DNA from: Mobula birostris
Taxonomy: Eukaryota
Direction of reading: 5' to 3'
Assembly: GCF_030028105.1 (NCBI RefSeq)
Contig: NC_092383.1
Coordinates: 86,323,921 to 86,387,920 of the forward strand
Length of the DNA stretch: 64,000 nucleotides
Part shown: piece after piece, positions 9,680 through 48,742 of the stretch
Layout: each line of letters starts with the position of its first letter
Position numbering within the stretch: the stretch's first letter is position 1
Made by a program: the position numbers and the translations under genes
Notes under the pieces: generated by a model
The model's database searches: none
The model's input: the letters and a program-made list of their open reading frames with translations, nothing else
Told to the model about the DNA's origin: nothing

Positions 9680-10180
9680 GAAAGAAGCCGCAGAAGATCG
9701 TGAACACGGCGCAGCACATCACACAAACCAATCTTCCGTCCTTGGAGTCACTTTACACCACACGCTGTCGGAGCAGTGCTGCCAGGATGATCAAGGACAC
9801 GACCCACCCAGCCAACACACTTTTCGTACCTCTTCCCTCCGGGAGAAGGCTCAGGAGCTTGAAGACCCATACGGCCAGAGTTGGGAACAGCTTCTTTCCA
9901 ACTGTGATAAGACTGCCGAACGGATCCTGACCCAGATCTGGGCCATACCCTCCAAATATCTGGACCTGCCTCTCAGTTTTTTTGCACTCCCTTACTTTCC
10001 ATTTTTCTATTTTCTATTTATGATTTATAATTTAATTTTAATACTTCTTTTTACTATTTTTAATATGTTTAATATTTCATATTTGTAATCCAGGGAGCGG
10101 GAACTGCAGAATCAAATATCGCTGTGATGATTGTACATTCTAGTATCAATTGTTTGGTGACAATAAAGTATAAAGTATAA
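9680..10180 (+). mobile_element. L2/Rex-Babar-type LINE 3' fragment
   Basis: ORF 9700..9930 AQHITQTNLPSL...HPANTLFVPLPSGRRLRS...NSFFPTVIR; (aaagtat)n tail. Confidence 0.8.
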
Positions 10181-10307
10181 CTGTATCCTCTTTTATCTTA
10201 ACATTACTCCTCCTACCAGATCAATTCTTTAAACTAACACTCTTCCATTTTTAACTCAGATCTGATGAGAAATTCCTGACCTGAAACTGGATTTAATGAA
10301 AAGTTCC

Positions 10308-10788
10308 TGTTATGATTTGCAGCTTCAAAACAGTGAACGAATTCAAAGCAAACAACAGAGCTGGGAAATGAGAATCTTAGACTGTGTTTTTACTTTAAGT
10401 GAGGCGCACATGTATCACATAGAAACATAGAAAATAGGTGCAGGAGTAGGCCATTCGGCCCTTCGAGCCTGCACCGCCATTTATTATGATCATGGCTGAT
10501 CATCCAACTCAGAACCCCGCCCCAGCCTTCCCTCCATACCCCCTGACCCCCGTAGCCACAAGGGCCATATCTAACTCCCTCTGAAATATAGCCAATGAAC
10601 TGGCCTCAACTGTTTCCTGTGGCAGAGAATTCCACACTTTCACCATGTTGGTGTCATGACATATCAATTCATATCATTTACTTATGAACCATATTTAATT
10701 ACTTAAACAAACAAGAATACTTAATCAAACAATATTTACAATATTACTCGAATATTTACAATATTACTGAAATATTAAATACACAACA
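10308..10788 (-). repeat. 3' LTR of the Gypsy element (contains a CR1 3' end at 10418-10645)
   Basis: TG...CA termini; aligns with 18334 onward (cttcaaaac..., aagtgaggc...tgtatca). Confidence 0.7.
10418..10645 (-). mobile_element. Short 3' end of young CR1
   Basis: Near identical to 14957-15180; (catagaaa)n tail. Confidence 0.9.
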
Positions 10789-11034
10789 CTCCTTGCAACT
10801 TAAGTATAAATTCCATCTGAATAGAAAATGCATCTCACTATATATACAGTATACTATATGAAGGATTTCATACTCTTGGCATATCATCCTTCCTGAAACA
10901 GGGGATCACTCTGCTTAGCAGATGAGACTTGTAGCTGTGAAACCATCTTAGGTTCTGGGGCCTCCTCCACAGTGGGTTGTAAGAGCTGTTGACCCTGAGA
11001 CTGCAGGAAGTGGTTCTGACTGCGATGGACATCT

Positions 11035-11122
11035 TTCTTCTCTTTCCCATTTCTTCTTCTAGTTCATGCATTTAGCTCACTGGAGTATTCTCTTATTAAT
11101 CCTTCTATTGCTCCCTTTACAA
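11035..11122 (-). pseudogene. RBM25: RBM25 retrocopy fragment, distal part
   Basis: Translates VKGAIEGLIREYSSELNA, matching vertebrate RBM25 IKGAIEVLIREYSSELNA (recalled sequence). Confidence 0.85.
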
Positions 11123-13983
11123 AAGGACGGGTTGCACTTGAATCCTAGGGGGACCAATATCCTGGCAGGGAGATTAGCGGGGGCTACTGAGGTGACTTTA
11201 AACTAGAATGGTTGGGGGGTGGGAATCAAATTAAAGAGGCTAGGCGAGAGGAGGTTAGTTCACAACAGGGGGATGGGAACCAGCGCAGAGAGACAGAGGG
11301 GTGTAAAGTGAGGGTAGAAGCAAAAAGTACTATGGAGAAAAGTAAAAGTGGCAGGCCGACAAATCCAGGGCAAGCATTAAAAAGGGCCACTTTTCAGCAT
11401 AATTGTATAAGGGCTAAGAGAGTTGTAAAAGAGCGCCTGAAGGCTTTGTGTGTCAATGCAAGGAGCATTCGTAATAAAGTGGATGAATTGAAAGTGCAGA
11501 TTGTTATTAATGATTATGATATAGTTGGGATCACAGAGACATGGCTCCAGGGTGACCAGGGATGGGAGCTCAACGTTCAGGGATATTCAATATTCAGGAG
11601 GGATAGACATGAAGGAAGGGGAGGTGGGGTGGCGTTGCTGGTTAAAGAAGAGATTAACGCAATAGAAAGGAAGGACATAAGCCGGGAAGATGTGGAATCG
11701 ATATGGGTAGAGCTGCGTAACACTAAGGGGCAGATGACGCTGGTGGGAGTTGTGTACAGGCCACCTAACAGTAGTAGTGAGGTCGGAGATGGTATTAAAC
11801 AGGAAATTAGAAATGTGTGCAATAGAGGAACAGCAGTTATAATGGGTGACTTCAATCTACATGTAGATTGGGTGAACCAAATTGGTAAAGGTGCTGAGGA
11901 AGGGGATTTCTTGGAATGTATGCGGGATGGTTTTTTGAACCAACATGTTGAGGAACCAACTAGAGAGCAGGCTATTCTGGACTGGGTTTTGAGCAATGAG
12001 GAAGGGTTAATTAGCAATCTTGTCGTGAGAGGCCCCTTGGGTAAGAGTGACCATAATATGGTGGAATTCTTCATTAAGATGGAGAGTGACATAGTTAATT
12101 CAGAAACAAAGGTTCTGAACTTAAAGAGGGGTAACTTTGAAGGTATGAGACGTGAATTAGCTAAGATAGACTGGCAAATGACACTTAAAGGATTGACGGT
12201 GGATATGCAATGGCAAGCATTTAAAGGTTGCATGGATGAACTACAACAATTGTTCATCCCAGTTTGGCAAAAGAATAAATCAAGGAAGGTAGTGCACCCG
12301 TGGCTGACAAGAGAAATTAGGGATAGTATCAATTCCAAAGAAGAAGCATACAAATTAGCCAGAGAAAGTGGCTCACCTGAGGACTGGGAGAAATTCAGAG
12401 TTCAGCAGAGGAGGACAAAGGGTTTAATTAGGAAGGGGAAAAAAGATTATGAGAGAAAACTGGCAGGGAACATAAAAACGGACTGTAAAAGCTTTTATAG
12501 ATATGTAAAAAGGAAAAGACTGGTAAAGACAAATGTAGGTCCCCTGCAGACAGAAACAGGTGAATTGATTATGGGGAGCAAGGACATGGCAGACCAACTG
12601 AATAATTACTTTGGTTCTGTCTTCACTAAGGAGGACATGAATAATCTTCCAGAAATAGTAGGGGACAGAGGGTCCAGCGAGATGGAGGAACTGAGCGAAA
12701 TACATGTTAGTAGGGAAGTGGTGTTAGGTAAATTGAAGGGATTGAAGGCAGATAAATCCCCAGGGCCAGATGGTCTGCATCCCAGAGTGCTTAAGGAAGT
12801 AGCCCAAGAAATAGTGGATGCATTAGTGATAATTTTTCAAAACTAGTTAGATTCTGGACTAGTTCCTGAGGATTGGAGGGTGGCTAATGTAACTCCACTT
12901 TTTAAAAAAGGAGGGAGAGAGAAACCGGGGAATCATAGACCGGTTAGCCTAACGTCGGTAGTGGGGAAACTGCTGGAGTCAGTTATCAAGGATGTGATAA
13001 CAGCACACTTGGAAAGCGGTGAAATGATCGGACAATGTCAGCATGGATTTGTGAAAGGAAAATCATGTCTGACGAATCTCATAGAATTTTTTGAGGATGT
13101 AACTAGTAGAGTGGAAAGGGGAAAACCTGTGGATGTGGTATATTTGGATTTTCAGAAGGCTTTTGACAAGGTCCCACACAGGAGATTAGTGTGCAAACTT
13201 AAAGCACATGGTATTGGGGGTAAGGTATTGGTGTGGGTGGAGAGTTGGTTAGCAGACAGGAAGCAAAGAGTGGGAATAAACGGGACCTTTTCAGAATGGC
13301 AGGCGGTGACTAGTGGGGTACTGCAAGGCTCAGTGCTGGGACCCCAGTTGTTTACAATATATATTAATGACTTGGAGGTACTACTGCAGTTGTACAAGTC
13401 CTTGGTGAGACCCCACCTGGAGTATTGTGTGCAGTTTTGGTCCCCTAATCTGAGGAAAGACATCCTTGCCATAGAGGGAGTACAAAGAAGGTTCACCAGA
13501 TTGATTCCTGGGATGGCAGGACTTTCATATGAAGAAAGACTGGATGAACTGGGCTTGTACTCGTTGGAATTTAGGAGATTGAGGGGGGATCCGATTGAAA
13601 CGTATAAGATCCTAAAGGGATTGGACAGGCTAGATGCAGGAAGATTGTTCCCGATGTTGGGGAAGTCCAGAACGAGGGGCCACAGTTTGAGGATAAAGGG
13701 GAAGCCTTTTAGGACCGAGATTAGGAAAAACTTCTTCACACAGAGAGTGGTGAATCTGTGGAATTCTCTGCCACAGGAAGCAGTTGAGGCCAGTTCATTG
13801 GCTATATTTAAGAGGGAGTTAGATATGGCCCTTGTGGCTACGGGGGTCAGGGGATATGGAGGGAAGTCTGGGGCGGGGTTCTGAGTTGGATGATCAGCCA
13901 TGAGCATAATACATGGCGGTGCAGGATCGAAGGGCCGAATGGCCTACTCCTGCACCTATTTTCTATGTTTCTATGTTTCTATG
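11123..13983 (+). mobile_element. Young CR1 LINE, 5'-truncated (ORF1 end + ORF2 APE-RT), defective
   Basis: ORFs 11212..12846 (APE) and 12880..13884 (RT); (tttctatg)n tail; 7-bp TSD TTTACAA (11116-11122 / 13984-13990); stop at about 12844 and internal deletion at 13374. Confidence 0.95.
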
Positions 13984-14460
13984 TTTACAACCTGATCTGC
14001 CCTCTAGGTTTCCTCATCCACAACCTGTGGCAAATCCTGTTTTTGTCTCTCCTTTGACTCTATTTCTTTTTGGCCTTCCTTTCATCGATCTGGTCTTTGG
14101 TCTTTGGTCTTTGCATCTACTTTTACAAGCAATTTTTTCTCCTACTTGACATTCCTGCAACAACCATAAAACACACAGAGTAGGTTTCAGTTCTTTACAG
14201 GCACAAAAGCCAAATGCTTGCAACTTTCCTGAAGATCCTTAAACTCTCCTCCAGCTTAAAACCAAGCCACATTTCACAAGTATCTGACTGATTAACTTAT
14301 CAGAAGCTTTCTCAGACATGTTGCCTATAAAAACTGTTGTAGTCCAACTAGTGCTTTCATCATTTTCACTCTTCCTCTGAGCAGCGTGGCCCTTCCTTAC
14401 AGGAATATGCTTTCCAATCAGAGGCATAGAAGTTGGAACCAACACATGTTTGTTCTCAGT
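13984..14460 (-). pseudogene. RBM25: RBM25 retrocopy fragment (RRM region), intronless
   Basis: TTTVFIGNMSEKASDKLISQILVKCGLVLSWRRV*GSSGKLQAFGFC...GEK(fs)LLVKVDAKTK...DEET matches RBM25 TTTVFVGNISEKASDMLIRQLLAKCGLVLSWKRVQGASGKLQAFGFCEYKE...KVDAKTK; one stop, one frameshift. Confidence 0.9.
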
Positions 14461-14489
14461 TAGGCAATGGTTTATGATGTATGTCAAAG

Positions 14490-14955
14490 AGGCAGTCGTG
14501 GCATTATCTAGTACCTTTCTTAATTTGGTTTCAGTCGGCTTCATTGCAAGGGATGTGGCATGCAATTGGTGGATGGATCTCCAATCGAGTAGCAGTTGTC
14601 TCAGCAAATGAAGTCCCCACAATGCTGGTCCTTCTGTTTTTACCACATACAAGCTCAATGTGGCTCACAGTTCTGCATGTCATTCCCACAGGAGTTATCC
14701 TTTTACCAGTGTAAGTTCTCAGTTGAATATTTGCAGGCTTCACTTTGGTATCTTTCAAATGCTGTTTAAACTCATTTTGTGGGATGACTGAAACAGCTGA
14801 ACTAGTGCCTAATTCCATTTTACTAATTTGTCGTTTACTCCTGGTGTAAGCCACATTGCTTGTTTGTTGTTAATTTTCATACAGTAAAGCTCAAGGCTAC
14901 ACAGTCCTGTGTCACTCTCATCATAATCAGATTTTTCATCTACAGCATGCAGATT
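14490..14955 (-). mobile_element. Gypsy aspartyl protease region (decayed)
   Basis: MELGTSSAVSVIP...QLRTYTG...LYVVKTEGPALWG; catalytic DTG degraded to GTS. Confidence 0.85.
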
Positions 14956-14956
14956 T

Positions 14957-16416
14957 GAAACATAGAAAATAGGTGCAGGAGTAGGCCATTCGGCCCTTCG
15001 AGCCTGCACCGCCATTTATTATGATCATGGCTGATCATCCAACTCAGAACCCTGCACCAGCCTTCCCTCCATACCCTCTGATCCCCCTAGCCACAAGGGC
15101 CATATCTAACTCCCTCTTAAATATAGCCAATGAACTGGCCTCAACTGTTTCCTGTGGCAGAGAATTCCACAGATTCACCACTCTCTGTGTGAAGAAGTTT
15201 TTCCTAATCTCAGTCCTAAAAGGCTTCCCCTTTATCCTCAAACTGTGACCCCTCGTTCTGGACTTCCCCAGCATCGGGAACAATCTTCTTGCATTTAGCC
15301 TGTCCAATCCCTTTAGGATTTTATACGTTTCAATCAGATCCCCCCTCAATCTTCTAAATTTCAACGAGTACAAGCCTAGTTCATCCAGTCTTTCTTCATA
15401 TGAAAGTCCTGCCATCCCAGGGATCAATCTGGTGAACCTTCTTTGTACTCCCTCTATGGCAAGGATGTCTTTCCTCAGATTAGGGGACCAAAACTGCACA
15501 CAATACTCCAGGTGTGGTCTCAGCAAGGCCTTGCACAACTGCAGTAGTACCTCCCTGCTCCTGTACTCGAATCCTCTCCCTATAAATGCCAGCATACCAT
15601 TCGCCTTTTTCACCGCCTGCTGTACCTGCATGCCCACTTTCAATGACTGGTGTATAATGACACCCAGGTCTCGTTGCACCTCCCCTTTTCCTAATCGGCC
15701 ACCATTCAGATAATAATCTGTTTTCCTATTTTTGCCACCAAAGTGGATAACTTCACATTTATCCACATTAAATTGAATCTGCCATGAATTTGCCCACTCA
15801 CCCAACCTATCCAAGTCACCCTGCATCCTCTTAGCATCCTCCCCTCCTCACAGCTAACACTGCCGCTCAGCTTCGTGTCATCCGCAAACTTGGAGATGCT
15901 GCATTTAATTCCCTCATCCAAGTCATTAATATATATTGTAAACAACTGGGGTCCCAGCACTGAGCCTTGCAGTACCCCACTAGTCACCGCCTGCCATTCT
16001 GAAAAGGTCCCGTTTATTCCCACTCTTTGCTTCCTGTCTGCTAACCAATTCTCTATCCACATCAATACCTTACCCCCAATACCATGTGCTTTAAGTTTGC
16101 ACACTAATCTCCTGTGTGGGACCTTGTCAAAAGCCTTTTGAAAATCCAAATATACCACATCCACTGGTTCTCCCCTATCCACTCTACTAGTTACATCCTC
16201 AAAAAATTCTGAGATTCGTCAGACATGATTTTCCTTTCACAAATCCATGCTGACGTTGTCCGATGATTTCACCACTTTCCAAATGTGCTGTTATCACATC
16301 TTTGATAACTGACTCCAGCAGTTTCCCCACCACCGACGTTAGCCTAACTGGTCTATAATTCCCTGGTTTCTCTCTCCCTTTTTTTTTTTAAAAAGTGGGG
16401 TTACATTAGCCACCCT
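14957..16416 (-). mobile_element. Young CR1 LINE, 5'-truncated RT portion
   Basis: ORFs 15044..15826 and 15706..16182 ([25 protein letters not shown]); same subfamily as 11123-13983. Confidence 0.95.
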
Positions 16417-16561
16417 TAGTGCTTTTTCGAAGCTGCAAGTTGACTTTTTAGCTTTTTTGCTTCCTAGTACCATGCATTTATTTTTGTCTGGCTGGCAAGT
16501 TCTTTGTATGTGTCCTACTTTGTTGCACTTTCTGCAAGTTTCAGCTTTAAACCTGTATTTG

Positions 16562-17340
16562 TGTCACAATGGGGTGCTGGGAATGGACCCAAATACAAAA
16601 AACAGACACTGAAGTACAAGGAACAGGACTTGACTAGAGTAGGGACGTGACAGGATACAGACAAGGAGCAGGGACAAGAACGCAGACTAGGGCTTGGATC
16701 CCAAGCCAGAGACTGGACAAGGACCCAAAACCTGGGTCTTGTCTCGGGCTCGGGCCCCAGAACCAGGCATGGACATGACATGACTGCAGGACTGGAGGTT
16801 GGGGTCTTGAGGCTTGAGGCTTGGAGACAAGCTAGGGGTCTTGAGGCTGGAGGCTTGGAGACAGGCTAGGGGTCTTGGTCTTGAGGCTTGGAGACAGGCT
16901 TTGGGTCTTGAGGCTTGGAGACAGGCTTGGGGTCTTGGTCTTGAGGCTTGGAGACAGGCTTGGAGTCTTGGTCTTGAGGCTTGGAGACAGGCTTGGGGTC
17001 TTGGTCTTGAGGCTTGGAGACAGGCTTGGAGTCTTGGTCTTGAGGCTTGGAGACAGGCTTGGGGTGCTGGTCTTGAGGTTTGGGGTCTTGGTCTTGAAGT
17101 GAGCAGGCAGAGAGTCAGGCAAGGTATCCAGGCAGAGAGTCAGGCAAGGGGGAAAAGACAGGGAGGGGAGCAGGACAGTCCAGCAGGGAATTCCTGGTTT
17201 GTAGAAGTATTTATGTCTCAGCCCCAAAACGAGAAACATGTGACCCAAACAGAAACTGGGGAAAATCAGAAACCCTGGAACGAGGAACCATGGACCGGAC
17301 CGTGAACCGGAACACGGACTTTACGGACCGGACTATGACA
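16562..17340. mobile_element. Solo LTR inserted in Gypsy gag
   Basis: TGTCA...TGACA termini, 5-bp TSD ATTTG; the uninterrupted gag sequence is visible at about 63880-63990. Confidence 0.85.
16808..17090. repeat. Tandem array of about 33 bp (ggtcttgaggcttggagacaggcttggggtctt) inside the solo LTR
   Basis: About 8 near-identical units directly visible. Confidence 0.9.
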
Positions 17341-18333
17341 ATTTGTTTGGTGAACGTGAGCCCCTGACACAATGGTAACACAATTTGTTCAGCCAGGCCA
17401 GTTTATGTTTGGACAATGTAATTTGTCTACACTCACTTTCATTCCTGATTGCAATTTAATTGTATCTCTGTGTGTGGTTTCCATTGAAACAGCAATTTTA
17501 CCTGCTCTCTTGAATGTAAGTTGTGCTACAGTTAGGAGTCATTTGTGAATGCTTTCTTGAAAGATTCCACAAAATAAATAATCTCTCAGTACATCTTTAA
17601 GCCTATTGTTGAGGTGACAATGGTCAGGCAATCTCTTCAATTCAGCCATGAACACTGAAGTGGGCTCCCCTTCTTTTAGATTCTGCTTATGAAACCTAAA
17701 GCTTTCTGCAACAAACAGTGGCATTGTTTCTAAATGTTCTTGAGAATATTAGCAAAGCTAATTTCTGCTGGTTTGTTTGGAGCAGTCAAACTCTGAAGCA
17801 AACTATATGCCTTTAAAGGCAAAGTACTTGGAAAAATTTGCACTCATTTCTTGATGTCTATTACATTTTCTTCAAGCTAGTGTTGAATTAGCTCAGTATA
17901 CATATTCCCCTGCCATGTACATGATTTCCCAATATGTCTGAGCGGCGTGGAGGGAAATTTTCCGCCAAATGGAAATTCCAGATGCGACCTAACAACGACG
18001 ATACACATTCCAATTATCTGCTATGGAATCAGACAAGCCAATCTTTCTGATGTAGCCATCTGTGTCTGCTGTTTTAAATGATGATTATCGCCCAGTACTC
18101 ACTCTTTACGAATGGATGAATTCTTCTGATATCTGACTTTTTTAATACTTGATCGTGTTCTCCCTTCAGAAGAACATGTGCTGTGCTGTTTTTTAATTAA
18201 ACTTGACCATCTTTCTATGTGCTGGGCTACGATTTTTTTAACTTGCAGTGTTTTTTTTTAGTTCAAATATTTCTCTGCGTTTCAACAGGTTGACAGCTAC
18301 CTAACATTCATTTTAAAGATACGTCATCGCCAA

Positions 18334-18520
18334 TGTATGTTTTGTAACTTCAAAACATCAAACTAATTCAAAAGGAAATACGGGAGTCGGGGAATATTCT
18401 TCACTTCATTCTTCACTTCAAGTGAGGCATGTATGTATCATGTAAATTAAATATATCTTCATTCTAGCTCATATTTATACATGTAACCCATAATTTATTA
18501 TTTTCACACACACACAAACA
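18334..18520 (-). repeat. 5' LTR of the Gypsy element (outer end uncertain)
   Basis: Homologous to 10308 onward; adjacent PBS-like sequence on the gag side. Confidence 0.6.
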
Positions 18521-19638
18521 CACAAGATGACTCATATAGAACCGAAATATTAAATACAGCTTCCACTAGTAGGGGAGCCAAGGACAAAAGGGCAGTCTCA
18601 GAATGGACGGACATCCCTTCAGAACAGAAATAAGGAGGAATATCCTTCATCAGAGGTGGTGAATCTGTGGAATTCATTATTACAGATGGCTGTGGAGACC
18701 AAGTCATTGGGTATATTCATTAGTGAGGGCATTAAAGCTTACAGGGAGAAGGCAGGAGAATAGAGTTTACTGGGATAATATATCAGCTATGATAGAATGC
18801 CGAAGCAAACTTTACGGGCCAAATGGCCTTACCCTGCTCCTGTGTTTATGGCCCTATGGTCTTGATTCCATCAAGAAAATCCAGGAACCTGAATGTGATC
18901 TGTTCACCATGTTTGAATTTTCATTCTCAACTAAGCCAAGAGGATAAATTAGTTATTAGCATCAACAATTTGTTAATAAGAATATTAGCTGATTGTTTAT
19001 TAATTATTGAAACATACAACAACAACCTCAGGCATTTGAGTCCATAGAACAGCATTTAATAGAGTAAACTGGTCTTAAGCAGTTCACAGCCATGACAGGG
19101 TTAAAAATCGTTGCTTGCGCAATGAAAAGAAAACATTGTGAAAAGGTGCCATACAGTTGAGATCTGTGAAGGTGACATGTTGGAAATGGAATGCTAAAAA
19201 AAGTCAAAGTCCTTACGTATGGTAACATTATTTTTTCACCTTCATGAAGTTGTTAATGAATGACAAGAGAGGTTAATTCTCCACAGATGTTAAATTTGTC
19301 TATATTCTGAAAAAGTATGACTATTTCATCTTGGTGTGAAATTCCAGCAGAATCTGTGTGATCCAGAAGCCTTCACTTTACCTTATAGACCAGTCTGGGA
19401 GGATCTGATTCATCGCGTCTCTGCAAAAGGAAATGGTCAAATCATCAGACTCATCAACACTGGGAACTCTGTTTTAGAGTTGTATCTGGAGCTTGGACTC
19501 CAATATATTCACATCAAGCATTCTGCACACATAGTATGTCAACATCTTGTCAATATCATCTGCAAATAGCTTTGGATTGACCATCCTCAAATGATCAGTA
19601 TATTTGAGTGCAAATTCTATTGTTTTCCATAAGCCTAC

Positions 19639-21234: not shown

Positions 21235-22655
21235 AGAACAAAGGTTCTGAACTTAAAGAGGGGTAACTTTGAAGGTATGAGACGTGAATTAGCTAAGTTA
21301 GACTGGCAAATGACACTTAAAGGATTGACGGTGGATATGCAATGGCAAGCATTTAAAGGTTGCATGGATGAACTACAACAATTGTTCATCCCAGTTTGGC
21401 AAAAGAATAAATCAAGGAAGGTAGTGCACCCGTGGCTGACAAGAGAAATTAGGGATAGTATCAATTCCAAAGAAGAAGCATACAAATTAGCCAGAGAAAG
21501 TGGCTCACCTGAGGACTGGGAGAAATTCAGAGTTCAGCAGAGGAGGACAAAGGGCTTAATTAGGAAGGGGAAAAAAGATTATGAGAGAAAACTGGCAGGG
21601 AACATAAAAACGGACTGTAAAAGCTTTTATAGATATGTAAAAAGGAAAAGACTGGTAAAGACAAATGTAGGTTCCCTACAGACAGAAACAGGTGAATTGA
21701 TTATGGGGAGCAAGGACATGGCAGACCAATTGAATAATTACTTTGGTTCTGTCTTCACTAAGGAGGACATAAATAATCTTCCAGAAATAGTAGGGGACAG
21801 AGGGTCCAGTGAGATGGAGGAACTGAGCGAAATACATGTTACTAGGGAAGTGGTGTTAGGTAAATTGAAGGGATTGTAGGCAGATAAATCCCCAGGGCCA
21901 GATGGTCTGCATCCTATAGTGCTTAAGGAAGTAGCCCAAGAAATAGTGGATGCATTAGTGATAATTTTTCAAAACTCGTTAGATTCTGGACTAGTTCCTG
22001 AGAGTTGGAGGGTGGCTAATGTAACCCCACTTTTTAAAAAAGGAGGGAGAGAGAAACCGGGGAATTATAGAACGGTTAGCCTAACGTCGGTGGTGGGGAA
22101 ACTGCTGGAGTCAGTTATCAAAGATGTGATAACAGCACATTTGGAAAGTGGTGAAATGATCGGACAAAGTCAGCATGGATTTGTGAAAGGAAAATCATGT
22201 CTGACGAATCTCATAGAATTTTTTGAGGATGTAACTAGTAGAGTGGATAGGGGAGAACCAGTGGATGTGGTATATTTGGATTTTCAAAAGGCTTTTGACA
22301 AGGTCCCACACAGGAGATTAGTGTGCAAACTTAAAGCACACGGTATTGGGGGTAAGGTATTGATGTGGATGGAGAATTGGTTAGCAGACAGGAAGCAAAG
22401 AGTGGGAATAAACGGGACCTTTTCAGAATGGCAGGCGGTGACTAGTGGCATACCGCAAGGCTCAGTGCTGGAACCCCAGTTGTTTACAATATATATTAAT
22501 GACTTGGATGAGGGAATTAAATGCAGCATCTCCAAGTTTGCAGATGACACGAAGCTGGGTGGCAGTGTTAGCTGTGAGGAGGATGCTAAGAGGATGCAGA
22601 GTGACTTGGATAGGTTGGGTGAGTGGGCAAATTCATGGCAGATGTAATTTAATGT
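21235..22655 (+). mobile_element. Young CR1 LINE internal fragment (5' and 3' truncated)
   Basis: ORFs 21277..21879 and 21919..22647 near identical to 12100-13370; no 3' tail. Confidence 0.95.
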
Positions 22656-22966
22656 GTTTTTCCATTATTCATTCCAATAATCTACTTACAAGGTAAAAAC
22701 ATATATCAACTTTCATGTCAAAAGTTATTGCAGAATATTTGGAGAGATTAGTTTATCTTGAACTCCTGGGATTAAAACATGTTGTCGAGCGTTGGTTGTA
22801 CTACTGGTTGTGAAAATGAAAACAATATTCTCACAGGCATTCAGTACAAGTAAATGAAATTATAAATTTCCCCTGAATTATCTCTCATATGGCGGGGGGG
22901 GAGGCAATCATAGCACCAGCAATGAGAACATTGTACATTTAAGCAGGACTGGATCAAGTGACTTAC

Positions 22967-23630: not shown

Positions 23631-25350
23631 TCCTGTTTTAATAGTGGGATGACAAATGTCATTGAACATCATAGAGTTATACAGTATGGGAACTAGCCCT
23701 TCAGCTCAATTCATCCACACTAACCAGCATGAGCTAGTCCCATTGAGTCTACTCCACCATTTCAGCACAGCTGATCCATTTCCCTTTCAACCTCGTTTTC
23801 CTGCCTTCTCCCCATTACCTTTCATGTCCTGACTAATCAAGAACTTATCAACCACAGCCATAAAGGTATCTGGTGATCTGACCTTCACCACCACCTGTGG
23901 CAACAAATTCCTGTCTCACCTCCCTCTGGCTAAAGAATTTCCTCCTCATCTCTGTTCCAAGTGGACATCACTCTCTTTTGAGTCTGTGCCCTCTGGGTTT
24001 TGACTTTCCCACCAATGGAAACATCCTCTTCACATCCACTGTATAAAGGCCTTTCACCATTCGATCAGCTTCAATCAGACCTCCCCTCATTCTTCTAAAT
24101 TCCAGTGAGTACAGGTCCTGAGCCTTCAATTGCTATTCATATGATAATCTTTTCATTCCCGGAATCGTTCTTGTGAACCTCCTTTGAACTATCTCCAATG
24201 CCAACACATCTTATTTTAGATAAAAGGCCCAGAAATACTCACAATATGGACGTCCCTGAAAAGGACAGGCCTTCATTAATCAGAGGATTGAGATCAAGAG
24301 TTGTGAGGTAATTGTGTAATACCAGTGGTCACCATCTACTGGCAGAATATCTATTGCGACCCTCTGCCTTCTGTAGGAAAACCAATTTCTATTATTAGAA
24401 TATCTCAAATGAAGAGGCACTGTAACAAGATAAGGATCAGGTAATTTAAAATTGGATTTAAATTCACAATCCTTAGAATCCTACACCTGGATGGTGGTGG
24501 AGGCTGGATCAGTGGGGATCTTTAAACAGAAAGTACCGTAGATATTTTTTGATAAAGATCAGGAAATGGCGAACTGTAGGAAAATGATGCAGAAGAGCTA
24601 AGAAAGCCTAGTACAGATCAGCCAAGATGATATTGAATAGTGGAGTAGTCTTGAGACACCAAACAGCCTGCTTGGTTTCTTGAGTTCAGTCCTTACACCT
24701 ATTGCATGTGACTTCCATTGCTTCTTTAGCCTGTATAATTCTCTCTATTTTCCACGAAACAAACTACTGGAAACTGTTTATAAATCCAGAAGGTGTGAGT
24801 TTGGGTATTTGCTGGTTCTCAAAGATGAGAAAATCTCAGTCAGCAACTAGAAATGTCAGCAATTTAGACGCAAAGCCACCATGCACAGCAAGAGCAGGCT
24901 GCAGGCAGGAAACTCTCTGGTGAGGGACTCACTTCTCAGCTACCGAACAGGGCATGCCGTTCCCTGCAAGATTTGTCACAATGCAGCTTAAAGAACATAA
25001 CAGATGAACACTCCCACCCACTAACCCACCCCTCCACAACCCCCACCACCACTACTTTATCATTTCATGTCAGGCACCTCAGGTAGATACACTATTGTGC
25101 CTAGCAGCAATTTACTTACATACAACCAATGTATATAAACAATTTTATGTATTTATATGTATCATGTTTATTAACGATTGTGTTCTGTACCTTATTGTTA
25201 TTTTTTATGGGTGCATTAGATCTAGAGTAACAATTAGTTTGTTCTCCTTATATTTGCATATTGGAAATGATATTAAGCAATCTTGAATCTTGAAGACGGT
25301 ACATGATACTCAATCAATCTCCCTAATGATTCGCACCCTCCACCACTTAC

Positions 25351-25671
25351 CAGTGCCAGTGAACTGAATCACAAAGCTGCAGTTGTCTCCTCTGTTGTCG
25401 ATGGACACGTTCACTATTTCACTAGACTTTGCTCCATGAGTATTGGAGGCAGTGCAGTAATATTGATAGTGTTGGTGTTTGAAGGATTGACAACGTAGAT
25501 CCAGTTGACTGTTTTCAGAGACTTTTGAATCCACAGATGAGATATTTTCATGCCATGTGTACTGAATGGGAAGGGATCCCTGGACAGACTCACAGGACAC
25601 TGACACGGAGCCCCCAACACACACGATATTTGCAGAAGACAGATATCGAAGCACAGGAACAGACACTGGTT
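25351..25671 (-). CDS. Ig C2-type domain exon C2c
   Basis: 321 nt, phase 1-1, ttcccacag| and G|gtaagt; EPVSVPVL...VSVSC..YTW...YYC; open. Confidence 0.9.
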
Positions 25672-25984
25672 CTGTGGGAAAGAATCAGTCAACATATTGA
25701 AATCAATATGTGGGCATCTGAACTCCACATCAATCCCAGATGCCTGAACCCCGCGTCTGCCACTATTCCAAAACACAGCAGGAGTCCAGATCAGAACAGC
25801 AGCAATGACAGTGAGGATGTGATGTGTCAGTGTGAAAATCAGGGTACAATCTCTCACAGCTACAAGGAGACAGTCACCACTGGTGTTTGAAAAAAAATAA
25901 TGCAAGCGTTGTTTGAAGGTGATAGTTTAATGGAAACTTGTGAGACAAGCTCTTTAGCTACAATGATTGTGGCGACTCCCTGTA

Positions 25985-27700: not shown

Positions 27701-27981
27701 CATGCATAGTGAAAATAAGATGCTCGGGGCCAGAGAACCGGAAATCAGGGTGGCATTTCATACAGTTCAGAGGCAGGAAAATGTACTGAGCCTTTCCACT
27801 GGAAATTGTTGGCCAGTCAGTGGGACGGACAACATGTGGGGTTCCCAAACCTTGCCCACTCCCCACAGGGCTCTGCACTGCTGAGGAGCCTCAGGATATC
27901 CATGCTTCTCTGACACTTCCTCGAGCAAATATGGATCAGACATTTCACTGGACACATAAAGGTAATCAAGGAGAAACCTAC

Positions 27982-28301
27982 CGTCAGATACTTGTAGATA
28001 CACGTCAAACACTGGATGATTGCCAGATGTTGCAATTCCACATCTGTAAACTCCTGTATCTTGAGAGACAAGATTCTCCATAGTAACAGTAAATATTCCC
28101 TGGGATGTGTTATCTCTGATTGTTATTCTTCCATACTGCTCATTTGTCCCATTTGTATTCACTAATGATGTGCATTGGCGACCCCACATGCGGCACAAAT
28201 ACTTTGTGTGTGAACGGTACTTTGGTCATTGTGACAATCGATTGTGATCGCTCTTCCCACAACTCCTCTTACTTTGTTTTCTGCCCATAAAGCACCCAAA
28301 A
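27982..28301 (-). pseudogene. Ig V domain exon V3, frameshifted
   Basis: Intact splice sites but 320 nt instead of 321; 1-nt loss near 28225; restored frame VLGALWAENKVRG...CH..KYRSHTKYLCRMWGRQC...DTGVYRC. Confidence 0.85.
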
Positions 28302-33021: not shown

Positions 33022-34822
33022 CTGTTAAAAGAAAATAAAATTCAATTTCATCTGCTTTGTATTTAAAAGAACAAAAGAGCACAATTGTTAGACCAACAGG
33101 TAGTTTAGTGTGGTGGACCAAAGGTGATCTATACTGAATGCACATTAAAAGTTGAAGATGACATTTTTTCCTCACATGTACATCAGATCATACAGTGAAA
33201 TGTGTTGTTTACAATGACCAACACAGAATATGTGCTGGGGGCAGCCTGCAAGTGTTCCATGTTTCCAGTGCCAAAATAGCTTCCCTTTGACATACCAATA
33301 CTAACCTGTGCGTCTCTGGAACGTGGGAGGAAAGCGCGACACCCGGAGGAAACTCATACAGCTACTAAGAGAACGTACAAACAACTTGCAATAGTGGTTG
33401 GAATTGGACCCGGATTGCTGATCGCTAATTGCTGTTCTACTGTGCACCCAATTACATTTACTGATGGCTTGGATTCTTTCCCATACTCAGTACCTGATGG
33501 TGTGGAGATGCAGCTGGGAAAGTTAAAGGACTTGGATTGAGGAAACTGTAATTCTATCTAATTAGGGAAAGGTCCATCTAGGGAGATGGCCTCAGCCGGC
33601 ATGGCGAGATCACTTTCCAGGGCCCCATCACCCTCTGCAGAGTTGGTGATAGCTGTACTTGAATATACAGGGAGATAGTGGTTCAAGTACACTTTTTGTC
33701 CAAAAGGATAATGTAGGAGATTTTTTCAATGAAAAGTCAAAGTCTTTTCCTTCCCATATCTCTTGATCTTTCTACCTCTGAGAAAAATAACTCAATCTTT
33801 CTTGCATATAGGTTCAGCACATTCTGGGCGAAGAAATCCTTCCTAATCCCAGTATTAAATGTCTCACCCTTTAGATTATTTCTAAGCCTCCATGCTTACT
33901 TACTTACTGCCCATTACAACATTGGCATTTAGGGCAGCAATGAAGGTTTTCTATCCCTAGCATTGTTCAGGGCTTCCTCCATCATGCCAGTAGATTCCTT
34001 TCGGTTTTCACTGCTGTCAGTCATGCAAGTCCCAGATGCAGACTGAGCAATACCATCAATCTCTGATGTAGAAGGATTCTTCATTCCTGTTTCCATAACA
34101 ATTTTGTTTTACCACTCAGCTTTGTTAGTCCTGAGCTGAACCCCCAAACCTGGAGGACTGGTGGATCACTCTAAGTCTGACCTCTACACTTTGACCTATA
34201 TAGGCATGGGTGAGCCTACAAAGAGCCAAAGTATAAAGACCTCACTCCAGCCAACAGAGATCTCCAGGTTATTGAGGCATGCAAGACTCCAAATCCAACA
34301 GCAAGGTTGTGATCCTCTTGGAGGTAAGATTCCATAGACTGTCCAGTATTCCCTGGTATTGGAAGCCTTCTAACTGCATCTGTTTCAGCCTGGTAAAATA
34401 TTGCAGCTTTCTATGAGATCACCTTTCAGTCTGGTGAACTCCAGGAAATAAAAACCTGATCAACCAATTCTCTGTTCTTGTGTCACTCATGGCATCCCAG
34501 AAATCAGTCTGCTGATCCTTTGCTAGCTTCCTTCCATAACAAGAACATCTTTCATCAGACCAAAACTGTTGGTGACATGAGAGTGAGGATGAAGAGATTG
34601 TCTGACTGATTTAAGCTTTAGGCCAGAATGGAAAAGTGGGGTATGTGCCAAATTGAGGCAGCGAGTCCCAGGCACAGGAGCGTATCGAAGCAGCACGAAC
34701 CCCCTACCATCTAAGCCATGTGTACTGGATATTGTGTTCCAACAATACAATATCCAGTACACATCAGTCACTCAGTTGTACTCCATTGACAATCATAAAA
34801 TATTAAACTCTGCACTACTTAC

Positions 34823-35143
34823 CCATTCTGTTGACATCAATCACATTTCTGCAGTTCCTGACATTGTTGGAGATGGACACGCTGATCATTTCACTAGTCT
34901 TTTCCCCATTATCATTTGAGACTTTGCAATAATACAGATATTTTTTGTATTTTAAGGATTGACAATGTAGATCCAGTTTATTGGTAACAGAGATCTTTGA
35001 ATCCACAGTTGGGGTCTTTTCGTACCATGAATACTGAATGGGAAGGGATCCATGGCCAGACTCACAGGACACTGACACATAGTCCCCACAACCTGAGCCA
35101 CTTGTTAGTGGTGAAAATCGAAGCAAAGGAACAGACACGGGTT
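34823..35143 (-). CDS. Ig C2-type domain exon C2b
   Basis: 321 nt, phase 1-1, ttttccacag| and G|gtaagt; VSVSC..YSW...YYC; open. Confidence 0.9.
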
Positions 35144-36009
35144 CTGTGGAAAACAACCAATAAACATCTGAAAATCAAACACAGTAAAGATTTCAGCAGT
35201 TCTGTATCTCAACCAGGACCCACACGTCTGGAATCTCAGCAGCTCCTCTACCTCTCTGTGTCTCTGCATCCTCTTATCTGCCTGAACTGCCATATCTGCC
35301 ATTATCCCTGAACACAGCAGGTCTCCAGATCAGGACAGCAGTGATGACACTGAGTATGTATCTGTGTGAAAATCAGAGTTACAAACTCTCTCAGCAGCAA
35401 GGAGACAGTCTAATGTTGCAACCAACAGCTTGACTCTGAAAAGGCAGCACTTGTGGGTGTCCTGGAAACCTATCAACTTCTGCTTTAAATATATCCAATA
35501 ATTTAGTCTCCACAGACTGTGGCAATGGATTCCACAGATTCACCAGCCGCTGGCTAAATAAATTCCTCCTCATCTCTCTTTTTTTCTGAGTCTGTGCCCT
35601 CTGGTCTTAGAGGTCCACACTACAGGAAGCATCCTCTCCACAACCATCAGCTTTTCTGTGCTCATTCTTCTAAGCTCCTGCAAGTGCACGCCCAGAGGTT
35701 TCAAACACTCCGCATACATCTGGGGAATTTAATATCTGGAGCCCTTTAGAGTTGATGTACAGAGAGTTCTTGGGGTTGAAGTCCATTGCTCCCTGAAAGC
35801 TGCAACACAAGTGGAAATAATGGTAATGAAAGCATTCAGCACATTTGCATTCTTCATTTTACATATTGGAAACTAAAGCTGACAAGGCATTTTGAAGCTT
35901 CATAAGACTTTGTTTAGGGCACATTTGCAACATACAATAATTTGTGATTCTGATAGCGACAGTATAGAAAAGATGTGGAGGTTTTAGAGAGGGTAATAAG
36001 GTCATCAGG

Positions 36010-36310: not shown

Positions 36311-37324
36311 ATGTTACCTGGATTGTAGCTATGGGGAGAAGTTTGACAAACTTGGATCATTTTCGCTGCAGTATAGGAGGCTGAGGAGAGACCTGATAGA
36401 AGTTTATGAAGTTATAGAAATCACAGATAGGGAAGATAGAATCTTTTCCCAGGGTTTAAATGTAAAATGATAGTGAGCATCGTTTGAAGGCAATAGGGGG
36501 AATGTTTAAAGAATGTTTTCGAGACAAGTTTTATTTACTCTGAGGGTGCTGACTGCATGAAACACACCGACAGACTGGCTGGTAGAAAGGGATATCATAA
36601 CAATATTTAAGAAGCTTTTGGACATGGACATGAAAAGGGAGGGGTTGGAGAGATATGGACCACATGCAGTAAGATGGAAGTAGCTTAGAATGATAGCATG
36701 GTCAGTGTAGACATAGTGGGCCAAAGAGTCAATTCTTGGGCTGTACATTATATCAAGTTCTCTCTAACCCCATTGCTCTATTTCCCACCAGGAATGGGCT
36801 GAATGGGGAGGCTGGCTACCGGGAAGTGGATGGTTAGTGGGTGCTGGCGGGTGGTTTATGAGAGCACAGAGAGAGTGCCGGGTAGGGGTGGGAGTGACTG
36901 ATCCATGAAGCAGGGATGGGAAATGGAATAGACTGCCCTGGGAGGACTGAACACAATCTGTAGTGATCTGGATCTGATTCCCTTTTTATGCTTTTTGAAG
37001 TGTTTAGACCATGTGAAACACTTGTTTCTCATTGACCTGTAAATATCAGATTCTTAGTTTTAGTCTGAATGCAAACCACTGTCAGAGCAACATTTCATAT
37101 GGTTCAGAAGCAGGATAATGTGCTGAGCCTCCCACTGGAAACCAGAGGGTCAGATTCCACACTGGGTGAGAGCAACTGGAGTGGGATTTCCGAACCCAGC
37201 ACCCTCCCCGCAGGGGCCTGCTCTGTAACAGAGCCTCTGAATATCGGTGCTGCCCGGACACTCCCCAGAGAAAACATGAATCAGACACTTCAGTGGAAAG
37301 ATAAAGTCAAAATCGGAAACCTAC

Positions 37325-37638
37325 CAACAGATACTTGTAGATGCACGTTAAATATTGGAGGATTGCCAGATGATAGAATTACACATATATAATGCCCTGC
37401 ATCATTAGGGTCAAGGTGCTCCATAGTAACAGTAAATATTCCCTGGGATGTGTTATCTCTGATTGTCATTCTTCCATACTGCTCATTTTGCCCATTTGTA
37501 TTCACTAACGATGTGCATCGGCGATCCCGCATACAGCACAACATCTTTGGGTCTAAGCGATACATTGGTGCATAGTGACAATTGATTGTGATCGCTCTTC
37601 CCACAACTCCTCTCACTTTATCTTCTGCCCATAAAGCA
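37325..37638 (-). CDS. Ig V domain exon V2, canonical acceptor deleted (possibly pseudo-exon)
   Basis: Open frame ALWAEDKVRG...INCHY...DAGHYIC; G|gtaggt donor; 8-nt deletion (gttttggg) relative to V3 removes the AG. Confidence 0.7.
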
Positions 37639-38142
37639 TGAGGGAGAAGTTTCTTAGAGAATGGACAGGTAAAATCAAATTTACACAGGCAAATCCTAGA
37701 TTCAAGATTGTTTAATGTCATTTCCAGTGCTCATGTGTAAAAGAGAATGAAATCATTGTTACTCTAGTCTAATGCAGCACAAAAACTCAAAAGATAAAGA
37801 ACATAATAATAATAAATAAAGATATTTTATTTAAAGCTGTCGCTGTGGTCTAAGGAATCTACCACACCGTCAATTGGTGTAATTGAATTCCACATTGTCT
37901 GAAAAGGCAACAGCATCGTCCCTCATCACAAAATCACAGCTCTTCACAAGTAATGATTTTTATTTGATTGGAGTCATCATTATCACTGCCCACTAATGTC
38001 GCAGTGTGTTTCCACATTTCAGGGTCAATAGATTACTGATCCAGTCCCATTCCAGGCAGGTGAGCACAAGATCAGCAGTGGGTAACTTACTGGAGGTGAT
38101 TCTGTGAGACAGGATCTATCTGAATTTGCCAAAACATAATCT

Positions 38143-41040: not shown

Positions 41041-41189
41041 TTAAGAGGATATGGTGGATAATCACCGTCTTTATTCCAGAGTAGGGACTTCAAGATCTAA
41101 AGAGTCTCGTCTGAAGGTGAGAGGAGAGTCTTAGAGGACTGGGAGGGGTAGTGTTTTCCACACGGAACAGTATGTGCATGGAAAAGGTC

Positions 41190-44100
41190 AGAGGAAAAGT
41201 CCCAGCCTCCCCAAGGATTACATCTGCACCAGGTGCACTGAGATGAGGCTTCTGAAGGACCGTGTTAAGGTGCTGGAGATGGAAATAGATGACCTTCGGC
41301 TAATTAGGGAAAGTGAGGAGGTGATAGATACTACCTATAGAGAGGTAGTGGATAGCACCCCTGTGACAGTCCCCCTCAGAAATCGATCTATCGTTTTGGA
41401 TTCTGTTGAAGAGGCAGACCTGACAGAGGAGGACCACAGTGAACGAGACTCTAGCATTCTGCCCAGTGCCAAAATCAAGAGAGCAAGAAGAAATGCGGTA
41501 GTTATAGGGGACTCCATTGTAAGGGGGACGGACAAGAGATTCTGCGAGCCGGACGAGGATACCCGGATGGTGTGTTGCCTCCCTGGTGCCAAGGTACGGG
41601 ATGTCTCAGATCGAGTCCAGAGTATTCTGAGGAGAGAGGGCGAGCAGCTGGAAGTCTTGGTACATATTGGTACCAATGACATAGACAGAAAAAGAGAGGA
41701 GGTCCTGAAGAAAGATTGCTGGGAGCTAGGAAGAAAATTGAAAAGCCGGACCTCCAGAGTAATAATATCAGGATTGCTGCCTGAGCTGCACGCTAATGAT
41801 GGTAAGAATAGCAGAATTAAGTGGATGAATGTGTGGCTAAGTAACTGGCGCAGGGGGCAGGGCTTCAAATTCTTGAATCACTGGGATCTATTTTGGGGAA
41901 GGTATGACTTGTACAAAAAAGATGGATTACACCTGAACTCAAAAGGTACTAATATCCTAGCGGGATTGTTTAATATAGCTGTTAGGGAGGGTTTAAGCTA
42001 AGTTGGCAAGGGGAAGGAAACCAAGATGTTAGGATCGAGGAAGAAGAAAATAGAAATAAGTCAAAAATACCGTGCAGCAAAGATGGTAAAAAGGACAGGC
42101 CGATGAATATACAGGATAATTTGCTGCGAAATAGATACATAGCACAAGTGGCAACAGGTACCGATCTAAATGTACTGTACTTAAATGCACTCAGCATTAG
42201 TGGATGACCTTGCTGCACAGCTGCAGGTTAAAAGGTATGACATTGTGGCCATCACCGAGTCATGGCTAAATGATGGATGTGATTGGGAGCTGAATATCCA
42301 AGGATACACAGTGTACAGGAAGGATAGGAAGGTAGGTAAAAGGGGCGGCGTGTCCCTGATGGTAAGTAACGATATCAAATCAATAGAATGAAGGGATATA
42401 GGATCAGAAGAGGTAGAATCCTTATGGGTAGAATTAAGAAATGGCAAGGGTAAAAAGACACTAATAGCAGTTATATACAGGCCTTCAAACAGCAGTCGGG
42501 ATGTGGACTACAAGTTGCAGCTGGAAATAGAAAAAGCGTGTCAGAAGGAAAATGTCAAGATAATTATGGGGGATTTTAATATGAAAGTGGATTGGGAAAG
42601 TCAGGAAGGTAATGGATCTCAGGAGAGGGAGTTTGTAGAATGCCTACAGGATGGCTTTTTGGAGCAACTTGTCCAGAAGCCCACCAGGGGACCGGCTGTT
42701 TTGGATTGGGTGCTGTGTAATGAACCTGAGGTGATTAGGGAGCTGGAGGTAAAGGAACCTCTTGGAAGTAGTGATCATAATATGATTGAGTTCAGTTTCA
42801 AATTTGAAAAGGAGAAGCTGGTATCAGGTGTATCGATATTTCAGTGGAACAGGGGAAATTACAGTGGTATGAGAGAGGAACTGGCCCAAGTCAATTGGAA
42901 AAGTAAACTAAATGGAGGGATGGCAGAGCAGAATTGGATGAAATTCCTATAAGAAATAAGGAAAATGCAGGAAAAATATATTCCAAGAAAAAAGAAAATC
43001 ATGAATGGAAAAATGGCACAAATGTGGCTAACGAGAGAGGTTAAGGCAAAAATAAAAGCAAAAGAAACGGCGTACAAGGAAGCAAAAATTAGTGGGAAAA
43101 ATGAGGACTGGAAGACCTTTAAAAACTTACAGAAAGAAACTAGGAAAGTCATTAGGAAAGAAAAGATGAATTATGAAAGGAAGTTGGCGATTAACATAAA
43201 AAAGGATACTAAGAGTTTTTTTTAAATATATGAAGAGTAAAAGAGTGACAAGGGTAGATATGGGACCGATTGAAAACGATGCTGGAGTAATTATAATGGA
43301 TAACAAAGAGATGGCGGAGGAACTGAATGAGTATTTTGTATCAGTCTTCACAGTGGAAGACATGAGCAATATACCTGATAGCCAGAGGTATCAGGGAATA
43401 GAATTAGGTACAGTCAAGATAACTAGAGAGAAAGTGCTTGGGAAGCTAAGTGGACTAAGAATAGATAAGTCTCCCGGCCCGGATGAGGTGCACCCAAGGG
43501 TTCTGAAGGAGGTGGCTTTGGAGATTGTGGAAGCATTGGAAATGATCTTTCAGGAATCAATAGACTCTGGCATGGTTCCGGAGAACTGGAAGGTCGCAAA
43601 TGTAGTTCCGCTATTTAAGAAAGGAAGGAGGCAGCAGAAAGAAAATTACAGACCTATTAGTCTGACATCGGTGGTTGGAAAGATATTGGAGTCAATCCTC
43701 AAGGACGAGGTTATGAAATACCTCGAGATGCATGACAAGATAGGCCGAAGCCAGCATGGTTTCATGAAGGGAAGATCCTGCCTTACCAACTTATTGAAAT
43801 TTTTTGAGGTAATCTCGAATAAGATTGACAAGGGAGAGGCTGTGGATGTTGTGTATTTGGATTTTCAAAAGGCCTTCGATAAGGTGCCGCATATGAGGCT
43901 GCTTAATGGATGAGAGCCCATGGAATTATAGGAAAGATATTGAAATGGGTGGAGCATTGGCTGATAGGCAGAAAGCAAAGGGTGGGAATAAAGGGATCCT
44001 ATTCTGATTGGTTGCCGGTTACTAGTGGTGTTCCGCAGGGGTCGGTGTTGGGGCTGCTTCTTTTTACGATGTATATCGATGATTTGGATTATGGATTAAA

Positions 44101-47463: not shown

Positions 47464-47784
47464 TGGTGCCATTGATTTCTGTCACATAACTGCAGATCTC
47501 TCCGTTGTTGAAGACTGTCACTTTAACCATTGCACTGTATTTTACTCCAAGCTTACTCGAGGCTTTGCAGTAATATTGATGGTGCTGCTGGTTGAAGGAT
47601 TGACAACGTAGAGCCTGTTTATTGGTATCTGAGATCTTTGGATGCCCAGATGAGGTTTGTTCATACCATGTGTACTGAATGGGAAGGGATCCCTGGAGAG
47701 ACTCACAGGAAACTGACACTGAGCCCCCAAGACGGGAGACATTTGCTGGTGACAGATATCGAAGCACAGGAACAGACACAGGTT
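47464..47784 (-). CDS. Ig C2-type domain exon C2a
   Basis: 321 nt, phase 1-1, ttcccacag| and A|gtaagt; VSVSC..YTW...YYC; open. Confidence 0.9.
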
Positions 47785-47836
47785 CTGTGGGAAGGAATTC
47801 AACAATCAGACTCTGAATAAACATCTGAAAATCAAA

Positions 47837-48388
47837 CACTCTTCTGCCACTTTATTAGCTACACCTGTTCATCTGGTCATTAATGCAAATATCAGATTAG
47901 TCATTTATGTGGCAGCAACACAGTCCATAAAATCATGCAGACATGGTCAAGATGTCTGGTTGCTGTTTAGGCAAAACATCAGAATAGAGAGGAAATGTGA
48001 TCTTAGTGACTTTGACAGTGGAATAATAGTTGGTGGCAGATGGAGAGGTCTGAGCATCTCAGAAACTGTTGACCTCCTGGGATGTTCAGGCACAACTCTC
48101 TCCAGAGTTTACACAGAACGGTGCAAAAAAACCAGAAAGTATCCAGTGAGCAGCAATTCTGTGATCAAAAATGCCTTCTTTATGAGAGAGGTCAGAGGAG
48201 AATGGCCGGACTGGTTCAAGCTGACAGAAAGATGACAGGAGTTTAAATAACCATGTGTTATGACGGTGGTGTGCAGAAGAGTATCTGAACCTTGAAGTGA
48301 GTGGGTCAGAGCGGCAGAAGACCATGAATGTACACTCAGTGGCCTATTTATTAGTTATGAAGATACCTAATGAAGTGGCCATTGAGTG
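47837..48388 (+). mobile_element. Non-autonomous Tc1-like element in the V1-C2a intron
   Basis: ORF 47909..48235 DLSDFDSGIIVG...GLSISETVDLLG (paired-like HTH); TIR ccactttattag / ctaatgaagtggcc. Confidence 0.8.
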
Positions 48389-48742
48389 CTTAAAGGCAGC
48401 AACTTGTGAGATATCCGTCACATGTTTGGTGGCTTTCATGAGAAAATGACCTGCCGTAGAAAGGGAAATATTTGGCACTGATATTAATGCAATGGTAGTT
48501 AGGGATGGACAGTGTCTGGACAAAGATCTTGTAATCTGTGCAGAGGCTGAGCAGGAGGAGGAGAAGAATGCTGTTCTTCAGACACATCCACGAGATGGGC
48601 ATTTCTCCATTCAACAAGCTTCACCCTGGGATCAGCACATTGTCACTCCCCAGGACATCTAATGCACAGACCCTTCCCGGAGAAAACATGGATGAGACAT
48701 TTATTCTACTGAAGGGACAAAGTCAATCACTGAGAAACCTAC

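Follow-up and report, generated by a model that had tools for sequence, protein, structure and literature searches.

Introduction

Retroposition mediated by long terminal repeat (LTR) elements has already been described in flies, zebrafish, chicken and mammals, and the cases include BLASTOPIA/Gypsy chimeras in Drosophila and five of seven cases in zebrafish (PMC5131818). Here we analyze a locus in a cartilaginous fish, Mobula birostris, in which a Gypsy-type element carries a piece of the gene for the splicing factor RBM25. The locus lies within a 64,000-nucleotide stretch of contig NC_092383.1 (positions 86,323,921 to 86,387,920 of the forward strand), referred to as the window, and its best reading is that of a decayed, well-formed, LTR-mediated retrocopy of RBM25 in a Gypsy-type carrier.

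In common with the retrocopies described earlier (PMC5131818), a section of the internal open reading frame (ORF) has given way to part of a spliced host mRNA, and both LTRs are kept. The host piece is truncated at both ends, has neither poly(A) nor a target duplication of its own and lies in sense orientation and, as in BLASTOPIA, one putative switch lies near an exon end. Unlike those retrocopies, the present one is found in a cartilaginous fish and its RBM25 part has a non-canonical start; it is also ∼13% divergent, compared with <1% in the fly cases. The main text of that study contains no mention of shark, and RBM25 is not mentioned in the nine of its supplementary files that were searched.

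Other systems offer partial parallels. As in retroviral oncogene transduction (gag-onc), host coding sequence replaces pol in frame with gag-protease, giving a defective, helper-dependent element; in contrast to gag-onc, the carrier is of the Gypsy type, no env is seen, the cargo is the RNA recognition motif (RRM) of a splicing factor, and nothing points to selection or spread. Maize Bs1 and human HERV-K/FAM8A1 are likewise LTR elements with pieces of spliced host genes, but Bs1 has several parents, exists in 1-5 copies and is expressed (PMC5131818), whereas the present locus has one parent, a single copy in the window and is decayed. An intronless, decayed copy of a housekeeping mRNA also resembles a processed pseudogene made by long interspersed nuclear elements (LINEs), from which it differs in lacking poly(A) and its own target duplication, in its 3′ truncation and in the discontinuity of the flanking element. 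Our literature searches, which covered few subscription papers, returned no shark or ray case of gene capture by an LTR element and no report of an RBM25 retrocopy.

Results

Organization of the Gypsy carrier

On the minus strand, the parts follow one another as LTR, primer site, gag, protease with linker, RBM25 (∼600 nucleotides), an integrase-like tail, a purine tract and LTR (Table 1), as had been described in an initial annotation made from the sequence alone. The RBM25 piece is oriented in the sense of the Gypsy element. Approximately 5.4 kb of the 8.2-kb span consists of later insertions, namely three CR1-like LINE pieces, a solo LTR and an insert of ∼100 bp. The LTR pair, the primer site and purine tract, and the gag-protease region identify the carrier as a defective Ty3/Gypsy LTR retrotransposon.

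Local alignment of the two LTRs yielded 90 matches and 19 mismatches in the 5′ half and 77 matches and 26 mismatches in the 3′ half, and the score for each half of the downstream LTR was reached in none of 1000 shuffles. The downstream LTR begins with TGTTGTG and ends with CATAACA, so that both TG...CA termini are there, and the first ∼5 nucleotides of the upstream LTR, beside an older CR1-like fragment, have been lost or changed. The primer site is one that we take to match tRNA-Ser; Rfam and tRNA searches gave no matches. A tetranucleotide, TTCC, adjoins the downstream LTR and recurs twice beyond the upstream one, where the two matches bracket the adjacent CR1-like fragment. Since TTCC occupies 0.5% of window positions by background, it is suggestive only as a target duplication of the whole unit.

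The gag-protease region could be aligned to the Gypsy polyprotein P0095 over 374 codons (202 identical, with 3 stops and 6 frameshifts), and 21 of 28 codons were identical in the zinc knuckle. When the 55-residue linker was scanned with HMMER against 1.84 billion representatives, 11 hits were obtained, all at 56% identity or less; eight of them were run against the window and three repeat-like ones were left out. These eight relatives matched gag, zinc knuckle, protease and linker as far as ∼14500-14497 and, beyond these parts, only a second gag piece at 63.8-64.0 kb. That piece, a fragment of the same Gypsy family at 63825-64000 on the minus strand, is 85% identical, stops after the zinc knuckle and is cut by the window end. 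A word-based protein search with the gag piece passed none of 96 candidates.

Proteins that match the protease and linker of the window carry protease or reverse transcriptase (RT)/RNase H/integrase domains, and in both P0091 and P0087, which match the protease-linker, the domain order is RT, RNase H, integrase. In tblastn at E<0.01, the RT, RNase H and integrase of the relatives found no match in the 64 kb, in keeping with the earlier observation that these parts, including the integrase core, are absent. In P0091, at least ∼725 residues separate the point corresponding to the 5′ junction from the conserved integrase end; thus, >2 kb of pol has been replaced by 0.6 kb. The integrase C-terminal tail of the initial annotation is weakly indicated, with the match to P0095 reached in 9 of 2000 shuffles (the best of six frame/protein tests) and that to a second protein in 53 of 2000.

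Identity and extent of the RBM25 piece

A search with 14445-14125 retrieved 79 proteins out of 126 candidates, all with an RRM, and every informatively named one was RBM25. The best RBM25 match was an RBM25-like protein from the shark Heptranchias perlo (P0002; E 4e-36, 66% identity); in tblastn against the window this model gave an E of 9e-46, and the bichir orthologue 2e-32, a ranking that agrees with a cartilaginous host. A PDB search returned generic RRMs only. Frameshift-aware alignment placed residues 3-170 of P0002 at 14481-13989 (159 codons, 109 identical, with 2 stops, 4 frameshifts and a largest insertion of 6 nucleotides) and residues 171-206 at 11120-11031, where there are one stop and one six-codon deletion. 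The piece is truncated at both ends and terminates at residue 257 of an 823-residue orthologue. Its length is therefore ∼600 nucleotides and not ∼560 as first estimated, and its start moves from 14460 to 14481, or up to ∼14497. No second RBM25 piece was found in the window, where the chimera is single. The sequence at 11123-13983, which interrupts the piece, was considered as an RBM25 intron and rejected on account of its 7-bp duplication and LINE ORFs.

Intron positions were deduced from variant gene models in other vertebrates, using 74 named orthologues and leaving out five unnamed ones. Three of the 74 models diverge just before VLVPT, six insert five residues between KLQ and AFG, and 12 diverge after KKE(E/D), which is the basis for the exon end placed at 11031; a break after ASNG occurs in two of the 17 shown, in one by a skip to the next exon. 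The window piece passes both internal positions (KLQ/AFG and ASNG) without an intron. As far as the gene models of other vertebrates show, it does not lie within one exon, and the intronless structure first claimed for it holds. We presume that the exons concerned are numbers 4-7, with a third internal junction. Literature searches on RBM25 exon structure or a poison exon, PMC12868881 and PMC12699894 included, produced nothing usable.

No run of six or more A residues occurs close to the RBM25 3′ end, and no target duplication was found around the piece, though age could have erased such short signals. These are the marks that the initial annotation had associated with a retrocopy inserted later by LINE machinery. 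They bear on an explanation by patching, with RBM25 RNA or cDNA entering a resident, already integrated Gypsy element through LINE machinery or break repair, internal priming at the purine-rich stretch and deletion of the >2 kb of pol. CR1-like LINEs are abundant in the window, the A-rich 3′ end could prime internally, and the single chimera would also be consistent with such a patch. In the accessible part of a survey of 244 genomes, 14,081 retrocopies are counted in cartilaginous fishes and non-mammalian retroduplication is ascribed to CR1 or Tx1 LINEs (bioRxiv 10.64898/2026.06.26.734816), which would lend this explanation further weight. However, the lack of poly(A) and of a separate target duplication speaks against it, and it would require that internal priming and a large deletion coincide with matching orientation and a similar age. 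We consider a patch of this kind unlikely.

Age of the RBM25 piece and of the LTRs

Identity between the LTRs is 75-79% over the aligned columns of a heavily gapped alignment (70.6% over 109 nucleotides by blastn), and their Jukes-Cantor distances are 0.25 (0.18-0.33) and 0.31 (0.19-0.45), equivalent to 0.12-0.15 per LTR. In the RRM core of the RBM25 piece, a minimum of 21 nucleotide changes was counted in 80 codons, while functional orthologues differ from P0002 at 1-4 of 81 residues (five of five checked); simulation gave a neutral divergence of ∼0.13, with 0.10-0.20 compatible. If the LTRs were identical at birth, an RBM25 divergence of ∼0.13 predicts an LTR-LTR difference of ∼0.26, and 0.25-0.31 was observed. 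Stop density was alike in the RBM25 piece (3 in 189 codons) and in gag-protease (3 in 374). On these sequence-based estimates the LTR distance would fit twice the age of the RBM25 piece, within wide ranges, and both LTRs appear to come from one insertion and not from different elements, as the initial annotation had allowed.

The low identity and numerous gaps of the LTR alignment could be accommodated if two Gypsy elements and an intervening RBM25 retrocopy had been fused by deletions. Against such a fusion stand the LTR distance of twice the RBM25 age, the candidate shared target duplication, and the absence of foreign sequence at either junction apart from ∼16 unassigned nucleotides on the 5′ side, and we regard it as very improbable.

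The junctions and the non-canonical upstream segment

The 5′ junction falls within 14499-14482, 36-54 nucleotides upstream of the canonical RBM25 coding exon, and the 52 nucleotides between the Gypsy linker and VLVPT, overlooked in the initial annotation, are largely RBM25-locus sequence. Seven nucleotide changes suffice for the 12 codons at 14481-14446 to encode residues 3-14 of P0002. This placement is the best of 127,928 in the window, the runner-up needing 10 changes, for a segment that was picked after the match had already been seen. In P0002, the four residues CFTQ intervene between this segment and VLVPT, and the 12 nucleotides that would encode them are missing from the window. None of the listed bony-vertebrate RBM25 proteins has the segment, and a search for further proteins with the shark N-terminus gave three hits out of four candidates, none spanning it. 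An RBM25-like X2 protein of Puntigrus tetrazona (P0010) has 13 extra residues before VLVPT that start with LYT, like the shark segment, the rest being unmatched; this likeness may be due to chance. The segment is either an alternative exon joined to the canonical acceptor or an upstream intron end with a later 12-nucleotide deletion, and its purine-rich composition would favor the alternative exon.

The same segment is an argument for a route like that of retroviral oncogenes, for which an intron junction is a hallmark. Here, a Gypsy element in an RBM25 intron upstream of the RRM exons would have had its 5′ half joined to the intron end by deletion or read-through and, following splicing, a single switch to helper RNA would have made the 3′ junction. 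The position of the 5′ junction upstream of the canonical exon agrees with this, as does the occurrence of the segment in one shark model only and in none of the retrieved bony-vertebrate RBM25 proteins; that shark model also enters non-homologous residues after KEKKEE. Read-through or chimeric transcripts enable retroviral gene capture, according to two reports (PMC9143442, PMC515179); in PMC12789967 no description of transduction was found. The segment is, however, purine-rich, unlike a polypyrimidine tract; the 12 nucleotides (CFTQ) that the window lacks resemble an acceptor in P0002, which fits an alternative exon at the canonical acceptor; and the RBM25 gene would have had to undergo an additional rare event. 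We judge this route to be a doubtful, minor possibility.

A stop-free frame runs from the linker into RBM25 (ORF 14664-14239), which would have given the newly formed chimera the capacity to encode a Gag-protease-RRM fusion protein; an in-frame junction is expected by chance in one case out of three. That capture by the oncogene route produced such an in-frame fusion, which then spread as a non-autonomous family of which this locus is one decayed copy, seems to us quite improbable.

At the 3′ junction, the candidate overlap of RBM25 and Gypsy is 11045-11032, and the RBM25 reading KEKK(D/E) reaches 11031. The purine-rich overlap proposed initially, legible as both RBM25 and Gypsy, was thus borne out on the RBM25 side only. 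The sole repeat common to both junction regions is a 6-mer situated >15 nucleotides from the 5′ junction.

Later insertions and surrounding sequence

The window is rich in repeats, and pieces of CR1-like LINEs are numerous among them. Copies of a single young CR1-like family, which share 95-97% identity, make up 10418-10645, 11123-13983 and 14957-16420 inside the chimera, and a further one lies at 21237-22656; the RT deletion in the copy that splits the RBM25 piece lies near 13375. Insertion of the Gypsy element into the neighboring older CR1-like fragment was rejected, as the far flank (10130-10307) does not continue CR1; this flank showed no clear match to CR1 copies, its best score being reached in 17 of 200 shuffles. 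The solo LTR within gag has a related copy of the same family, with internal tandem repeats, at 54088-55195, and no other copy of the ∼100-bp gag insert was found in the window.

Away from the chimera, the minus strand contains three tandem units (25310-49112), each with an Ig V-set exon (48723-49112, 37290-37730 and 27767-28225) followed by a C2-like Ig exon (47258-47851, 34815-35174 and 25310-25684), representing an Ig-superfamily receptor gene or cluster. On the plus strand at 41135-42001, a GDSL esterase-like ORF probably represents ORF1 of a LINE. Another LINE family is the probable source of an RT ORF at 56854-57918 on the minus strand, which also matches ALKBH8_N.

Table 1. Features of the chimeric locus and its borders (window positions).
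Position	Strand	Feature	Remarks
10304..10307	+	Candidate 4-bp target duplication TTCC	Recurs at 18561-18564 and 18866-18869
10308..10788	-	Downstream (3′) LTR	Split by 228-bp CR1-like 3′ end at 10418-10645
10789..10800	-	Degenerate polypurine tract, 9/12 purines	Directly before downstream LTR
10801..11045	-	Probable Gypsy tail (pol C-terminus) and 3′ untranslated part	Weak P0095 tail match; position before purine tract
11031..11121	-	RBM25 coding, resumed; ends in purine-rich KEKK stretch	23/30 codons identical to P0002
11123..13983	+	CR1-like LINE splitting RBM25 piece	Endonuclease and internally deleted RT; exact 7-bp duplication TTTACAA
13987..14445	-	RBM25 coding, pre-RRM through RRM, intronless	RRM_1 E 0.003, below cut-off
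14446..14497	-	RBM25-locus sequence upstream of canonical exon	Homology shown for 14481-14446
14498..14956	-	Aspartic protease and protease-RT linker	Matches P0087, P0089, P0093, P0094, P0095
14957..16420	-	CR1-like LINE fragment	RVT_1; member of the young family (95-97% identity among copies)
16421..16560	-	gag zinc knuckle	Pfam zf-CCHC E 5e-4, just under curated cut-off
16561..17340	.	Solo LTR of another family	Ends TGTCA...TGACA; flanked by CAAAT (5-bp duplication); contains a 33-bp tandem repeat
17341..18057	-	gag, 5′ part; disrupted by stops, frameshifts and a ∼100-bp insert	Matches Gypsy polyprotein P0095 residues 3-204
17898..18011	.	Short insert in gag	∼100 bp, flanked by 11-bp duplication with one mismatch
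18321..18331	-	Primer-binding-site-like motif, starts TGGCGA	Adjoins upstream LTR end directly
18332..18558	-	Upstream (5′) LTR	Aligns to downstream LTR: 167 matches, 45 mismatches
18559..18865	+	Older CR1-like 3′ fragment at outer edge of upstream LTR	Matches 7/7 CR1 copies tested

Discussion

LTR-mediated capture of RBM25 RNA, counting the double-switch and read-through forms together, is probable, because pol is replaced and not interrupted, the orientation is sense, the piece is truncated at both ends, poly(A) and a separate target duplication are lacking, and the age agrees with that of the LTRs. Taken by itself, an LTR-mediated retrocopy formed by double template switching has somewhat better than an even chance. 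It is the likeliest route, and co-packaging, the two switches and integration by helper enzymes are all steps that we infer. Hence, of what the initial annotation proposed, the evidence given above supports the capture of spliced RBM25 RNA, and the two template switches are likely.

By this double-switch route, an RBM25 RNA with its RRM exons spliced and with the extra upstream segment would have been co-packaged with Gypsy RNA. During minus-strand synthesis, the reverse transcriptase would have switched from the Gypsy RNA to RBM25 within the integrase tail, copied ∼600 nucleotides of RBM25 and rejoined the Gypsy RNA just after the protease, skipping >2 kb of pol. The resulting cDNA, with both LTRs, primer site and purine tract, would then have been integrated by enzymes supplied in trans. 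Afterwards the copy decayed and now carries 3 stops, 4 frameshifts and five later insertions, with no sign of function.

Several observations weigh against this interpretation. The 5′ junction lies in non-canonical RBM25 sequence, implying that a non-standard RNA must have been captured. Microhomology at both junctions is putative, and at the 3′ junction the overlap is seen on the RBM25 side only. The exon structure is taken from other species, and the age ranges are wide. The second gag copy, at a distance of 0.17 (0.11-0.24), is closer than the LTRs are to each other, which would fit if that copy is younger. Finally, the start of the upstream LTR is damaged, and one of the two upstream TTCC matches may be CR1 sequence.

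The mechanism is already known, and what is new is the lineage, for which no report was found, together with a non-canonical 5′ segment that makes the capture route testable. The locus extends LTR-mediated retroposition to a cartilaginous fish, from a group in which retrocopies are ascribed to LINEs in the accessible part of the recent survey (bioRxiv 10.64898/2026.06.26.734816), and its chimeric anatomy is still legible at ∼13% divergence. The captured piece provides independent evidence that the upstream segment, otherwise seen in one shark model only, occurs in RBM25 RNA, and whether this segment is exonic or intronic would tell double template switching from transduction by read-through.

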